The notes: generated by a model from the sequence alone, not told the origin. Positions 45,148 to 53,474 are shown, counted from the stretch's first letter. The stretch: DNA of 64,000 nucleotides from Clostridiales bacterium (GCA_003343885.1 QAKH01000059.1:8416-72415); one strand, 5' to 3'. Numbers and translations are program-made.

Positions 45148-45178
45148 TTTCAAATTTTATCCTTTTACAGTAAAATAA

Positions 45179-45216
45179 CCGGTGCAGCAATTAAAAGCTG
45201 CACCGGCTGTTTTTTA
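45179..45216. terminator. Bidirectional intrinsic terminator
   Basis: A 10-bp stem ccggtgcagc (45179-45188) pairs with gctgcaccgg (45197-45206). It is flanked by an A-rich run upstream and a T-run downstream. Confidence 0.8.
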
Positions 45217-47670: not shown

Positions 47671-48495
47671 CTAAATCAGTGTTTTCAGATATTTTAGCGT
47701 GTCAAACCCACGCTCAGCATGGTATAAAAGATATTTTTCACACATGTCGCAAAATCCGTCCGCACTTTCAGCGCTTAGCTTGAAACTCAAATATTTTGGG
47801 ATCTCAGCACGTGCAACGTATTCGGCGGCTAAAAGGGCAGGGGCGGAAACATATACGGTATAGGCGCTGTTTTTTATGTCGCCATTCAGACAGTTAACGC
47901 ATATCGGCGCTCCCTCTGATACGGAAAAAGCGTATCTGCCGGTGTCTTGATTAAAGGCAGGAAGCTTGTACGTGCCGCCGTGCTCCGCCATGCCGTCTGC
48001 CTTGTATAATACTTCGGAGCAGTACGCACACTGAGAAAAGTCCGGCGTAAATCCGGCGATACAGCACAGTTTTAACTCAAAGGCAGCCTTTATTTGCCAG
48101 AGCGGCTTGTCCTTTAAATTTGCGGCTGCATACAGCGTGTTTAAAACCAGCCGCATGGCGTCCGACTCATCATTTTCACTTGTACAGAAATTTGTAACGG
48201 CGTCGGACATATAACATGCCAAAGCATACCTTGCAATATCGCTTCGTAACCCGAAAAAGCCGTCCTTCAACACTGCCGTTTTTAGTGATAGATGTGATGA
48301 AGAGGAGCAAATAAGCTCAAGCTCACTGTAACAAAACAGCTGTACGGCGGCGCTGTTTTTGCTCGCAATATTGCGCACGCCTCGGGCATAAACCGTAAGA
48401 ATTCCTCTCTCCGGTGTAAGAACCGTCAAAATACGGTCGTTTTCCTTGTATGCCGTTTCACGAAGTACCACGGCGTCGGTCGTGAATTCACGCAA
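47671..48495 (-). CDS. recO: DNA repair protein RecO
   Basis: An OB-fold N-terminus (TDAVVLRETAYKENDRILTVLT) is followed by the Zn motif CAYC..CVNC. I chose the TTG start at 48495, 7 nt after the era stop and preceded by GAGGA. The ORF opens at 48552 but would then overlap era. Confidence 0.85.
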   Translation of the reverse strand: MREFTTDAVVLRETAYKENDRILTVLTPERGILTVYARGVRNIASKNSAAVQLFCYSELELICSSSSHLSLKTAVLKDGFFGLRSDIARYALACYMSDAVTNFCTSENDESDAMRLVLNTLYAAANLKDKPLWQIKAAFELKLCCIAGFTPDFSQCAYCSEVLYKADGMAEHGGTYKLPAFNQDTGRYAFSVSEGAPICVNCLNGDIKNSAYTVYVSAPALLAAEYVARAEIPKYLSFKLSAESADGFCDMCEKYLLYHAERGFDTLKYLKTLI

Positions 48496-48502
48496 GGTTA
48501 CG

Positions 48503-49945
48503 TCAGTCCTCTTTCTTAAATCCCAGACGTGCCATGTTAAGCTCGCTGTCACGCCAGTTTTCCTTAACCTTTACCCAAAGGTTCAAATATACCTTTTTAT
48601 CGGACATTGCCTCAAGGTCTTCACGTGCGTAGGTCGCCGCCTTTTTCAGCGTTTCGCCGTTTTTGCCTATGATAATTTTCTTGTGCGCTTCTTTTTCACA
48701 GTAAATCTCTGCTCGAATTTCAATAATGCTCGGCTTTTCCTTGTAGTCCTCAATTGTAACGGCTATTCCGTGAGGAATTTCCTCGTCAAGCAGACGAAGC
48801 AGTTTTTCACGTATTACCTCTGCGGCTATCTGACGCACCGTCTGGTCGGTAACCATGTCCTCAGGGAAGAACCAGCGCTCATTGTGCAAAAACTGCTTAA
48901 GTTCCTGCATAACAGTGTCAACGCCCTCTCCGGTGAGCGCGCTTATCGGGATAATGCTCTTAAAATTGTAAAGCTTTGAATATTTGTCAATAGTAACGAG
49001 AAGCTTGTCTTTTTTAGCAATGTCAACCTTGTTTATTAACAATATTGCCGGTAAACGCAAGCTTTTCAGGTTGTCTATAATATCTTTGTCCGCCTTTGAA
49101 ACTTCTCCTTCGCTTTCGGCGACAAGTATAACTGCGTCTGTGTCGGGAATGGCGGTCTTTGCGGCGTTTACCATATATTCTCCAAGCTTGTTTTTAGGCT
49201 TGTGAAGTCCGGGAGTGTCAACAAAAACATATTGTTCGTTTCCGACAGTATGTATGCCGGTAATTCTGTCACGGGTAGTCTGCGGTTTTTTTGAAACTGC
49301 CGCAACCTTTTCGCCGATCATCGCATTCAACAGCGTACTTTTACCGACGTTAGGACGTCCGACAATGCTGATAAAAGCTGTTTTCATGTTCTTTACCGGT
49401 ACGGATTCCTTTGCGGCTGCAGCTGAATGATTAGTGTCAGCGTCAGTATCCGAACCCTGCGCACGCCTTAACCCCAGCTCCTCAAGAACTTCCTCACAGG
49501 TTTCGTTCATGTATTCTTCGTCTTCTTTGCTTACTTCGTGGTCAAAACCAAGCAAATGAAGAACAGAATGAACGCACAGAAAACCAACTTCACGTTCAAC
49601 AGAGTGTCCGTATTCGTCAGCCTGTGCCGCAGCTCTTTCCAGAGAAATGACAATGTCGCCGATTGCGCACGGTTCTCCGCTTTCATCATCGTATTCTATC
49701 TCGCCGTTTTCAAAAAGAGGGAAAGATAAAACGTCTGTCGCACTGTCTTTGCCACGGTATTCAAGATTGAGCTTGTGAATATTTTCGTCGTCTGTAAAGG
49801 TCAGAGAAACCTCAACGGGAAAATCAATTTCCTGATAGTCCAAAGCGGCGGTAATCACCTTTTTTGCAAGAGAACGCAGTGCAGGAGTGAGTTCGACCTT
49901 GTCCTGGTCGTTTTTTGTATATATTGTGTGTTTGATTTTGCTCAT
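48503..49945 (-). CDS. ybeY-era: In-frame fusion of endoribonuclease YbeY (aa 1-~160) and GTPase Era (aa ~187-480)
   Basis: The YbeY part has DVLSFP and the metal motif HSVLHLLGFDH. A roughly 25-aa acidic/Ala linker follows. The Era part has G1 GRPNVGKSTLLN, G3 DTPG, G4 NKVD and a C-terminal KH domain (IIIGKNGETLK). No stop codon separates the two parts. Confidence 0.9.
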   Translation of the reverse strand: MSKIKHTIYTKNDQDKVELTPALRSLAKKVITAALDYQEIDFPVEVSLTFTDDENIHKLNLEYRGKDSATDVLSFPLFENGEIEYDDESGEPCAIGDIVISLERAAAQADEYGHSVEREVGFLCVHSVLHLLGFDHEVSKEDEEYMNETCEEVLEELGLRRAQGSDTDADTNHSAAAAKESVPVKNMKTAFISIVGRPNVGKSTLLNAMIGEKVAAVSKKPQTTRDRITGIHTVGNEQYVFVDTPGLHKPKNKLGEYMVNAAKTAIPDTDAVILVAESEGEVSKADKDIIDNLKSLRLPAILLINKVDIAKKDKLLVTIDKYSKLYNFKSIIPISALTGEGVDTVMQELKQFLHNERWFFPEDMVTDQTVRQIAAEVIREKLLRLLDEEIPHGIAVTIEDYKEKPSIIEIRAEIYCEKEAHKKIIIGKNGETLKKAATYAREDLEAMSDKKVYLNLWVKVKENWRDSELNMARLGFKKED

Positions 49946-50021: not shown

Positions 50022-50990
50022 TCAAGAGTCCGATTTTTTGTTCTCGTATTTTTCATAAGCACGTATGATTTTCTGAACTAACGAATGACGTACAATATCT
50101 TTGTCGGACAGATAGTGAATAGCAATATCGGGAATATCCTTTAAAACCTTAACAGCTTCCGTTAAACCGCTTGTAACGCCCCGCGGCAGGTCAACCTGCG
50201 TAATATCACCGGTAACAACGGCTTTTGAGCCGAACCCAAGACGGGTTAAAAACATTTTCATTTGCTCGGGAGTAGTGTTCTGCGCCTCGTCGAGAATAAT
50301 AAACGAATCGTCAAGTGTACGTCCTCTCATGTACGCAAGAGGGGCAATCTCAATAGCACCTTTTTCAAGATTTCTTGTGTAGCCCTCCATGCCTAACATC
50401 TCGAACAATGCGTCATATAACGGTCTTAGGTAAGGATCGATTTTACTTTGAAGATCGCCCGGTAAAAACCCGAGACGTTCTCCGGCTTCAACCGCCGGAC
50501 GAGTAAGAATTATGCGGTTGACTTGTTTTGCACGCAGCGCATTTACTGCCATTGCGACAGCGAGAAATGTTTTTCCTGTACCGGCAGGACCGACAGCAAT
50601 GGTTACAGTGTTGTGTGAAATGGAGTCAAGATATTGCTTTTGACCGACAGTTTTTGCTTTAATCGGTTTGCCTCGGGAAGTGATGCAAACGCAGTCGCCG
50701 TCAAGACTTTGGAGTTGGCCTGCACTTCCGGAGCTTACCATGCTGATGACATATCTGACATTTTGTTCGGTAAGAGGTTCCGAGCGTTCTGTCATTTTTA
50801 AGAGATATTCGATGGCATTAGCGGCATTTTCAACATCGGCCGGATCGTCGCCGATTATTTTTATTCCGTCGGAGCATTGAAAAAGCTGAACGCCGAACTC
50901 GCTTTCAATTATTTTTGTATTTGAATCAAAATCTCCGAATATTCCGGCACGACGTTCCGCCGAAGCAATATTTACAAGCTTTTCTGCCAT
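50022..50990 (-). CDS. phoH: PhoH-family ATPase
   Basis: It has Walker A GPAGTGKTFLAVA and ILDEAQN. ATG 50990 lies 8 nt after AAAGGA. Confidence 0.93.
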   Translation of the reverse strand: MAEKLVNIASAERRAGIFGDFDSNTKIIESEFGVQLFQCSDGIKIIGDDPADVENAANAIEYLLKMTERSEPLTEQNVRYVISMVSSGSAGQLQSLDGDCVCITSRGKPIKAKTVGQKQYLDSISHNTVTIAVGPAGTGKTFLAVAMAVNALRAKQVNRIILTRPAVEAGERLGFLPGDLQSKIDPYLRPLYDALFEMLGMEGYTRNLEKGAIEIAPLAYMRGRTLDDSFIILDEAQNTTPEQMKMFLTRLGFGSKAVVTGDITQVDLPRGVTSGLTEAVKVLKDIPDIAIHYLSDKDIVRHSLVQKIIRAYEKYENKKSDS

Positions 50991-51244
50991 ACACAACATC
51001 CTTTCACACAACTTCACAGAATAATTATACAATATATATATCTTATTTTCAATGATTTTTTCATTATTTATGTATCAAGTTTTTTTTAACTGATTTAATG
51101 GTTGTTTGTGTGTTTTAACAATGCCGCGTGGGTGAGCATACAATACAACGAGCTGCGAATTCAATACACAATCGGGATTACCCGGAAATGAAAGGTGGGA
51201 TATCGGGAAGGAGTATTTCCTTTCCGTGGACAATGAGAAGAGAT

Positions 51245-52114
51245 ATGAAAATTGGTTTTATAGGCGGTGACATGCGGCAGGTGTTCTGTGCTGAAAATCT
51301 TGCAGAAATGGGATTTGAGGCAGCATTGTTCGGCTTTGATAAATATAGCAGCAGCGTAGGACTTTGTACAAGATGCAACAGTCTTGAGGACGCAGCATGC
51401 ATGGCAGATATACTTATACTCCCTCTTCCTGTCACAAGCGACGGAATAAATGTGAATACACCGTTATCAGAAAAAAGCATTTCTCTCGAGTATGTTTTCG
51501 AGCATGCTTTAGGATGCAGTTTGATATTGTACGGCGGAGAGTGTGAAGCTTTAGAAAGATTTGCCCGTGAAAATGGTATAGAAGCAATAAATTATTACGA
51601 GAGAGAAGACTATAAGGTTGCAAATGCCGTTCCCACAGCCGAGGGAGCTGTTTCAATCGCCGTAGACGAAATGCCCGGCACAATATACGGCGCCGATTGT
51701 CTTATACTCGGTTATGGAAGAATAGGAAAGGTATTGGGCAGACTTTTGCACGCTTTTGGCGGAAAAGTTTGCGTAGCCGCAAGAAAAAATGAAGACTTGC
51801 TTTGGGCAAATATAAACGGTTTGAAGAGCGTAAATATAAACAGTATGGAAAGTGAACTCGAAAAAAGCGACCTTATAGTAAATACTGTACCTAAAACTAT
51901 ACTAAAGGACGATTTGTTAGGAAAAATACGCAAAGACGCATTGGTGCTTGACTTGGCATCAAAACCCGGAGGAATTGATTTCAAATCCGCAAAGGAGAGA
52001 GGACTTAACGTCGTATGGGCGTTATCTTTGCCGGGAAAAGTCGCTCCCTTAAGCGCGGGGAAAATCCTGTCAGACACCGTGACAAAAATCCTCAGTGAAA
52101 AAGGAGTGATATAA
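51245..52114 (+). CDS. dpaA: Dipicolinate synthase subunit A (SpoVFA)
   Basis: The protein has MKIGFIGGDMRQ and the Rossmann motif ILGYGRIGK. It pairs with dpaB. The start is uncertain (51233 or 51245). Confidence 0.85.
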   Translation: MKIGFIGGDMRQVFCAENLAEMGFEAALFGFDKYSSSVGLCTRCNSLEDAACMADILILPLPVTSDGINVNTPLSEKSISLEYVFEHALGCSLILYGGECEALERFARENGIEAINYYEREDYKVANAVPTAEGAVSIAVDEMPGTIYGADCLILGYGRIGKVLGRLLHAFGGKVCVAARKNEDLLWANINGLKSVNINSMESELEKSDLIVNTVPKTILKDDLLGKIRKDALVLDLASKPGGIDFKSAKERGLNVVWALSLPGKVAPLSAGKILSDTVTKILSEKGVI

Positions 52115-52674
52115 TGCTTGGATTCGCTATGAGCGGCTCATTCTGTAACTTTGAAAAATCAATTAAAGTTCTGGAGCGGCTAAGCAAAATAAACGACGAA
52201 ATAATACCGATAATGTCGTATAACGCATACACAACCGATACCCGATTCGGTACAGCTCAGTATTTTATTTCAAGAGTTGAAAAATTGTGCTGTCATGAAG
52301 TAGTACACACACTTGCCGACGCTGAACCACTGGGTCCCAAAATAAAACTTGACTGCCTTTGCATATGCCCCTGTACGGGAAATACCCTTTCTAAGCTTGC
52401 CTGCGGAATATACGATACTCCCGTAACTCTTGCGGCAAAAGCGCACCTTCGCTCGTCGAGGCCGCTTGTGATTGCGCTTGCTACCAATGACGCACTGTCA
52501 GGAAACGCTGTAAGCCTTGCGACCATGCTTACAAGAAAAAACGTGTATTTTGTACCTATCGCTCAGGATGACAGCCACAATAAACCGTACAGTCTCGTGT
52601 GTGACTTCAATCTTGTTGAGCAGACTATCGAAAAGGCAATGAACGGGGAACAGATACAACCTCTGTTCTTTTAG
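52114..52674 (+). CDS. dpaB: Dipicolinate synthase subunit B (SpoVFB, flavoprotein)
   Basis: The protein has GFAMSGSFCNF and CPCTGNTLSKLA. Its ATG overlaps the dpaA stop. Confidence 0.88.
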   Translation: MLGFAMSGSFCNFEKSIKVLERLSKINDEIIPIMSYNAYTTDTRFGTAQYFISRVEKLCCHEVVHTLADAEPLGPKIKLDCLCICPCTGNTLSKLACGIYDTPVTLAAKAHLRSSRPLVIALATNDALSGNAVSLATMLTRKNVYFVPIAQDDSHNKPYSLVCDFNLVEQTIEKAMNGEQIQPLFF

Positions 52675-52904
52675 GTTATTTCTACTACAAAAAACTGTCA
52701 TAAATATCGGTAATTTACGTAATAGTAAAAGTTTCATAATTCATTCGTTTTGTTTTACTCAGAACGGATGAATTTTATTTTTGAAATAAAACGCGATGAA
52801 TAAGAGAAATATGTAAAATATTGTTACATTTTATTTCAATTATGATATTTATTGGATGTATATTGTGTGATAAAATAAACCGATTTTGTTGCAGGAGGAA
52901 AATA

Positions 52905-53474
52905 ATGAAAGAGCTTGTATTACTTTTTACGTCATTTTTCAAAATAGGCATAATGACATTCGGCGGCGGATATGCTATGCTTCCTATGCTTGAGCGCGAG
53001 ATAGTAGTCAATCATAAGTGGGCTACAATGGAAGAAGTGATGGACTATTTTGCTATTGGTCAGTGTACTCCCGGAGTAATTGCTGTAAATACTGCAACCT
53101 TTGTCGGATATAAGCGTAAAGGAATATTGGGTGGAATAATAGCAACGCTTGGTGTAGTCGCACCGTCAATTATAATCATTTCCGCGATTGCCGGAATACT
53201 TGATCTGGTGTCCGAGAACAAATACGTAAAGCATGCGTTTGCCGGAATAAGCGTTGCGGTGTGCGCACTGCTCGTGCAGGCACTTATAAAAATGGGAAAA
53301 TCGGGTGTAAAGGATATTTTCACTGCGATATTAGCGGTTTTGTCATTTGCTGTCTCACTTGCTTTCGGAGTTTCGCCGATAATACCGGTTGTGCTTTGCG
53401 GCATTGCAGGCTGCGTATATATGGCAATCCGAGAAAAGAATAAAGAATCGGCTAAAACTAATGGGAAAAAGTAA
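52905..53474 (+). CDS. Chromate transporter (CHR family) half-size subunit, second pair
   Basis: The protein has MTFGGGYAMLPML and QCTPGV. ATG 52905 follows AGGAGG. Confidence 0.85.
   Translation: MKELVLLFTSFFKIGIMTFGGGYAMLPMLEREIVVNHKWATMEEVMDYFAIGQCTPGVIAVNTATFVGYKRKGILGGIIATLGVVAPSIIIISAIAGILDLVSENKYVKHAFAGISVAVCALLVQALIKMGKSGVKDIFTAILAVLSFAVSLAFGVSPIIPVVLCGIAGCVYMAIREKNKESAKTNGKK

Follow-up and report, generated by a model that had tools for sequence, protein, structure and literature searches.

The ybeY::era fusion occupies positions 48503..49945 on the minus strand of the window, by which the whole 64-kb stretch of DNA that was analysed is meant. The ORF listing and the domain matches define one open reading frame that starts at an ATG and encodes a protein of 480 amino acids and 53.95 kDa. 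The frame is free of stops from 49945 to 48506 in both the ORF listing and the raw sequence, the linker between the domains included, and YbeY lies N-terminal to Era within this one unbroken frame, which is the natural YbeY-Era architecture. The first-pass annotation of this DNA had described an in-frame YbeY-Era fusion at 48503-49945, and its coordinates are exact: they delimit a single minus-strand ORF of 480 codons for amino acids.

The YbeY domain comprises residues 1-161 (49463..49945, minus strand), as delimited by PF02130, TIGR00043, the AF2 model and PDB alignment. PF02130 matches residues 22-157 with 147.8 bits against a cut-off of 25 (E 2e-43; profile positions 6-129 of 129), and the NCBIfam equivalog TIGR00043 matches residues 26-160 with 143.7 bits against a cut-off of 45. 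The YbeY chains 7y7o, 1oz9 and 1xm5 of the PDB align to this half of the protein. Alignment places the zinc-binding motif H126-x3-H130-x5-H136 (HSVLHLLGFDH, residues 126-136) at 49538..49570 on the minus strand; its three histidines are the counterparts of H114, H118 and H124 in E. coli YbeY and are invariant in 51 fused homologues. Gate-keeping arginine, invariant active-site threonine and uS11-contact residues have been assigned in E. coli YbeY among R59, T65, D85, T42 and R44 (bioRxiv 10.64898/2026.08.26.747345). R59, T65 and D85 correspond to R64, T70 and D97 in the fusion, all of which are invariant in the alignment of 51 fused homologues. T42 is replaced by S47, a conservative change, and R44 by T49, a position at which S. 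aureus YbeY (7y7o) likewise has threonine. The YbeY half is predicted from these residues to be an active zinc hydrolase, which forms part of the overall explanation favoured below, and that explanation is considered very probable as a whole. A gene for uS11 was not found in the 64-kb window by a search of the six-frame translation with the pattern H[ND]GCR, which is a weak test.

The Era moiety takes up residues 187-480 and the stop codon (48503..49387, minus strand), with the GTPase domain followed by the KH domain, and is recognized by NF000908, TIGR00436 and PDB matches. The NCBIfam equivalog NF000908 matches residues 187-476 over its full length (profile positions 1-291 of 291) with 360.6 bits against a cut-off of 237, TIGR00436 scores 279 bits against a cut-off of 116, and the Pfam family MMR_HSR1 matches residues 192-306. 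The top PDB matches of this moiety are all Era (chains 9jkp_B, 1ega and 3iev). The G motifs comprise G1 GRPNVGKS at residues 196-203, the TT of PQTTR at 223-224, G3 DTPG at 243-246, G4 NKVD at 305-308 and SAL at 335-337. Motifs G1-G5 are all present, and their core residues, G1, G3 and G4 included, are invariant in the 51 fused homologues, whose identity goes down to 58%. The KH type-2 domain (PF07650, E 6.6e-20) spans residues 389-465 (48551..48781, minus strand), and its loop IIGKNG (I424-G430) is invariant or near-invariant in fused homologues. HSVLHLLGFDH, the Era G1-G4 motifs and the KH domain, all listed in the first-pass annotation, are thus found in the sequence and the alignment. Conservation is equally dense over the YbeY and Era domains and collapses in the linker only. 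Because the YbeY histidines and the G1, G3, G4 and KH residues of Era are invariant in 51 fused proteins, both halves are under purifying selection, and with the full-length equivalog matches this upholds the earlier statement that both domains are complete.

The two domains are joined by the linker AQGSDTDADTNHSAAAAKESVPVKN, which was studied through alignment, AF2 and anti-SD pairing. It had been described as a stretch of about 25 amino acids without a stop codon; it is 25 amino acids long (residues 162-186; 49388..49462, minus strand) and the raw sequence is stop-free. The linker region is unconserved across 121 fused proteins, in which its length ranges from 15 to 33 amino acids. A semi-conserved (I/V)P(V/I)K(D/E) just before Era, at residues 181-186 (49388-49405, minus strand), is the sole conserved part of the linker and is seen in the clade of the window. 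AF2 modelling of the fusion from a 51-sequence alignment gives pLDDT values of about 85-97 for the YbeY blocks and below 50 for linker residues 164-180, with a pTM of 0.45. The Era G domain is modelled with confidence except for switch I and switch II. Low AF2 confidence in these two switches is usual for GTPases. The model thus describes two well-folded domains with a disordered, flexible tether, and not a packed interface, between them, a predicted picture that draws both on the linker pLDDT below 50 and on the free variation of linker length and sequence. AF2 returned no confident YbeY-Era interface (pTM 0.45), and among PDB entries there is no solved fusion or YbeY-Era complex, every matching chain covering one half only.

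No gene lies between the fusion and phoH upstream, nor between the fusion and recO downstream. The ybeZ-like phoH gene (50022..50990, minus strand; Pfam PhoH, E 1.7e-96) is listed from a TTG at 51032; its true start is likely to be the ATG at 50990, which has GAAAGGA 8 nt before it and gives a 322-aa product, as called in L081 and L082. A promoter-like TTGAAA-17-TATAAT (51024..51052, minus strand) upstream of phoH is a consensus match only (11/12), in a region where the total of promoter-like sites is no higher than in shuffles. The TTG at 51032 falls inside this best promoter-like site (51052..51024). Downstream, recO (47671..48552, minus strand; Pfam RecO_N and RecO_C) is listed from a GTG, which makes it share 50 nt with era. 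There is also an in-frame TTG at 48495, 7 nt past the stop of era and with AGAGGA 11 nt before it; this TTG fits recO better because homologue alignments begin at residues 12-27, and it may be the start instead of GTG 48552. After recO, ribF and then a D-Ala-D-Ala carboxypeptidase gene follow on the same strand. Since the first strong minus-strand terminator past the operon, a terminator-like hairpin of 12 pairs with 8 GC (45177..45208, minus strand), comes only after the PBP gene, the transcription unit may extend over phoH, ybeY::era, recO, ribF and the carboxypeptidase gene. The 64-kb window, translated in six frames and searched by pattern, again a weak test, gave no credible match to cdd (PCGxCRQ), dgkA or pgpH (HD).

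Beyond the operon, dpaA (DpaA_N and an NAD-binding domain) and dpaB (Flavoprotein family) lie at 51128-52674 on the plus strand, divergent from phoH. Because dpaA and dpaB encode the dipicolinate synthase subunits, the organism probably forms endospores. Beside dpaB are two adjoining short genes of the chromate-transporter family (PF02417), a split ChrA pair, at 52821-53474 on the plus strand and beyond (L081:1-1041).

Fused proteins of this kind are common among the closest homologues. The best 120 matches in a collection of 5.8 billion proteins are all fusions of 440-480 amino acids with PF02130, PF01926 and PF07650, at 59-99% identity, and the first 150 cluster representatives (50% identity) include about 50 fusions, with lengths of 440-655 amino acids. 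Pfam gives only YbeY, GTPase and KH in nine of ten scanned cluster representatives. Extra domains were considered for the longer fused representatives (520-655 aa), in which Pfam finds merely longer linkers or N-terminal extensions. The tenth representative (P0267, 500 aa) is no YbeY fusion; it combines GTP-bdg_N and GTP-bdg_M, the N-terminal domains of HflX, with a GTPase domain and a C-terminal Era-type KH_2, and looks like an HflX/Era hybrid architecture.

The gene order around the fusion was compared by scanning one genome per species, which yielded 80 related loci, nearly all from Oscillospirales/Clostridia MAGs of gut and rumen. Eight of these loci are fused, namely the six relatives of the window (L001-L006), L019 (Evtepia sp.) and L020 (Ruminiclostridium sp.). 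A survey of related genomes for the same fusion had been proposed in the first-pass annotation, and it finds the fusion both in these loci and in all of the best 120 homologues. At 58 loci ybeY and era are adjacent and separate, and in 27 of the 58 they are in frame with exactly one stop between them; at L015 (uncultured Eubacterium sp. UMGS660), the TAA of ybeY is followed immediately by the ATG of era in the same frame. The remaining loci have an insert of 470-690 nt between ybeY and era (10/80) or an era without adjacent ybeY (4/80).

Examples of such inserts are found at L045:4474-5001, L053:1198-1741, L055:6486-7150, L059:6471-6940, L069:4572-5073, L074:6498-6980 and L075:577-1240, and also at L062 and L067. 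Most encode a protein of 150-205 amino acids with a basic N-terminus, an apparent single TM segment (…RNV(R/K)LITFLIC.AVF…) and a C-terminal domain. The identification of the inserts as dgkA or cdd was ruled out, the small insert proteins being without a Pfam family.

In 71 of 74 related loci phoH immediately precedes ybeY, and in 69 of 72 era is immediately followed by recO, which indicates that the compact phoH-ybeY-era-recO arrangement is the norm of the lineage and older than the fusion. The first-pass annotation had called the operon stripped-down in comparison with Bacillus, where pgpH, dgkA and cdd lie between or beside ybeY and era. The absence of these three genes from the operon stands, whereas its presentation as something special does not, given the frequency of the same arrangement in relatives. 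The split operons of other Oscillospirales (e.g. L015) share the order and compaction of the window and encode proteins that are 45-60% identical; they differ in that a stop or frame shift and a strong SD (median -6.25 kcal/mol) keep era a separate cistron.

Trees were built by bootstrapped neighbour-joining from concatenated PhoH, YbeY and Era of MAG-derived loci, and from Era only. The window and L001-L006 form a clade in 100/100 bootstraps of the concatenated tree, in which the window clade groups with fused L019 in 0/100 bootstraps and the nearest neighbours of L019 are split loci. In the Era-only tree, L019 and L020 make up another fused clade, with split lineages around it. Since the window clade is separate from L019 and L020, which nest among split lineages, the fusion appears to have arisen at least twice in the sample, and thus from at least two independent origins within Oscillospirales. 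By comparison with the split loci, the ancestor would have had ybeY and era adjacent, with a short spacer, in a compact phoH-ybeY-era-recO operon. Loss of the ybeY stop would have turned the spacer into the linker, after which the era SD would have decayed and the era start become dispensable. As little as one substitution, in the stop codon, may have been needed for the fusion.

The fate of the former era start can be followed at the ATG codon of Met187 (49385..49387, minus strand), which, judged from alignment and anti-SD pairing, is probably not used for initiation. Glutamine occupies the Met187 column in 65 of 121 fused proteins, methionine in 36 and lysine in 16. The era start codon is dispensable in the fused family because this column is mostly glutamine or lysine (81/121). 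The 20 nt upstream of Met187 pair with the anti-SD at -3.0 kcal/mol, compared with a median of -3.3 for random in-frame era positions and a median of -6.25 for the separate era genes of 68 related loci; the mean of the 8 fused genome loci is -2.9. The comparison shows that the era SD of the window has decayed to background, which agrees with the earlier remark that Met187 has no convincing SD. Within the 64-kb window there is no stand-alone ybeY or era, and the search for an internal era promoter within ybeY gave only a 9/12 consensus match at 49713..49685, the count of promoter-like sites in the region being equal to the shuffle expectation. From sequence comparison, the fusion appears to be obligate in most members of the family, and we infer that the product accumulates as a single 54-kDa polypeptide.

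It has to be considered whether the locus could nevertheless give two products, the full fusion and a free Era initiated internally at Met187 (ATG 49387..49385), so that an untethered pool of Era is kept. Weak or SD-independent initiation occurs in Firmicutes, the region is A-rich, the linker is unstructured, and the ATG is retained in the window and its closest relatives, as in 36 of the 121 fused proteins. However, the anti-SD pairing of -3.0 kcal/mol equals coding background, and the glutamine or lysine in most of the fused family argues that free Era is evidently not required there, and a second product is therefore considered unlikely. Processing of the fusion as a polyprotein, in which the disordered linker is cut after synthesis to give separate YbeY and Era in equal amounts, is less probable still. 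Although a hydrophilic linker predicted to be disordered (pLDDT <50) would be accessible to proteases, no cleavage motif is conserved in it, it varies freely both in length and in sequence, and such processing is without precedent in two published accounts of Era fusions (PMC10582724; PMC6144821).

Two further readings would deny that the fusion is a functional or a real gene. The loss of a stop between neighbouring genes can be neutral initially, and the fusion might then be a neutral read-through on the way to domain loss, with one half a decaying, non-functional remnant. As far as the sequences can tell, conservation already contradicts this highly improbable reading, since each half scores as a full-length equivalog, neither shows any change in its catalytic and binding residues in homologues down to 58% identity, and position for position YbeY is as well conserved as Era. 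A sequencing or assembly artefact, in which a base error in the linker masks the ybeY stop of two genes that are separate in reality, had been named in the first-pass annotation as what could overturn the fusion, and one error could in principle mimic a fusion in view of the 27 split relatives that are in frame with a single stop, but this is effectively refuted and has a negligible chance of being right: an identical 480-aa protein is recorded on 5 contigs (the two shown are from runs SRR5903354 and SRR5903347, with gene order alike), the best 120 homologues, with identities as low as 59%, are fusions without exception, monophyly of the fused clade is supported by 100/100 bootstraps, and the SD expected of a separate era is missing.

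The locus is very probably a genuine, vertically inherited gene fusion for one bifunctional 30S platform assembly factor in which YbeY is tethered to Era. The fusion, here in a gut or rumen genome of Clostridia, is confirmed; it belongs to a known kind, of which it is an ordinary example, and is conserved in its lineage. A YbeY-Era fusion was noted in Clostridia in 2018 (PMC6144821), and a 2023 review of Era, in the section ‘Era proteins with additional domains’, reports YbeY-Era fusions in Clostridia, some Selenomonadales and Thermoleophilum album (PMC10582724), on which the breadth of the fusion outside Clostridia rests. In the same work YbeY-Era is the most frequent Era fusion, a functional link is inferred from it, and the function of fused Era proteins is called an open question (PMC10582724). 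A natural YbeY-Era fusion is not mentioned in PMC5101352 or PMC9159920. The fusion architecture and the Rosetta-stone argument drawn from it are thus already known; the first-pass annotation was right to take the fusion as support for a YbeY-Era complex, and the argument had already been published (PMC6144821; PMC10582724).

The published YbeY-Era fusions (IPR002036 plus Era) have the same domain order of YbeY, GTPase and KH, and the same inferred joint action on the 30S platform. They come from the same group, Clostridia, with database names including Oscillospiraceae, Ruminococcaceae and Eubacteriales, and show no difference in kind from the fusion in the window. The separate YbeY and Era proteins of E. 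coli, S. aureus and B. subtilis (YqfG) belong to the same families, have the same catalytic residues and the same phoH/ybeZ neighbour, and are linked to one another and to uS11 by physical and genetic interactions; unlike them, the two domains in the window are covalently joined through a 25-aa tether and era is without an SD. In some Rickettsia, RNase III-Era fusions likewise join Era to an enzyme of rRNA or ribosome maturation encoded by a neighbour, although the partner is another one and these fusions are much rarer than YbeY-Era (PMC10582724).

The separate proteins provide the background for what the fusion may do. A three-way interaction of YbeY, Era and uS11 has been reported in E. coli (PMC5101352). 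Deletion of ybeY is suppressed by overexpression of era or by an era point mutation, and the recruitment of uS11 is accelerated by Era (PMC10582724). A 2026 preprint describes YbeY as a metzincin-like hydrolase that converts Asn119 of uS11 to isoaspartate, on the basis of work with the E. coli and human proteins; without YbeY, consolidation of the platform fails, and the defect in 16S 3'-processing is a consequence (bioRxiv 10.64898/2026.08.26.747345). The first-pass annotation had placed YbeY and Era together in 16S 3'-end maturation and late 30S assembly; the joint role in 30S assembly stands, whereas YbeY as the RNase of the 16S 3' end is under revision in the light of the isoaspartylase preprint.

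A mechanism for the fusion can be drawn by analogy from this published work on separate YbeY and Era proteins. The KH domain of Era would bind the 3' end and the h45 region of nascent 16S rRNA beside the platform. The tethered YbeY would bind uS11 and convert its asparagine to isoaspartate, leading to the seating of uS11 and closure of the platform, and maturation of the 16S 3' end would follow as a consequence of platform closure. The tether would enforce 1:1 stoichiometry, co-localisation and a high local concentration of two factors that otherwise have to meet. A stronger form of this proposal holds that there is no pool of free Era or YbeY, the fusion being strictly obligate, and that the tether links what YbeY does with uS11, its isoaspartylation and delivery, mechanistically to the GTPase cycle of Era on the nascent platform; this is put forward tentatively, at somewhat less than even chances. 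If it is true, the single-chain protein would be a handle for trapping the still-unseen YbeY-Era-uS11-pre-30S intermediate.

The fusion carries little weight as a discovery, as citations of the Clostridia fusion in support of joint action go back at least to 2018. What is added here is that the fusion appears, by sequence, to be obligate in most members, that it probably arose from an adjacent in-frame pair through loss of a stop codon, that at least two origins are indicated within Oscillospirales, that modelling predicts the domains to be tethered by a disordered stretch instead of packed against each other, and that the YbeY half is reread through the isoaspartylase preprint. The name given to fused proteins in NCBI/nr (P0027, P0046) is just ‘GTPase Era’, in which the YbeY half is invisible. 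Since the product name covers Era only, ybeY is possibly scored as missing, and surveys of gene content or essential genes could wrongly call it missing in these genomes. As an apparently obligate, flexibly tethered fusion of an abundant gut or rumen lineage, the protein is a sensible choice for capturing the platform-assembly intermediate in a structure. With many relatives one stop away from fusion, the family illustrates cleanly, on a small scale, the way in which neighbours in an operon become Rosetta-stone fusions, and, if the stronger proposal above holds, the recurrent origin by stop-codon loss would show that selection favours the tethering of YbeY to Era.
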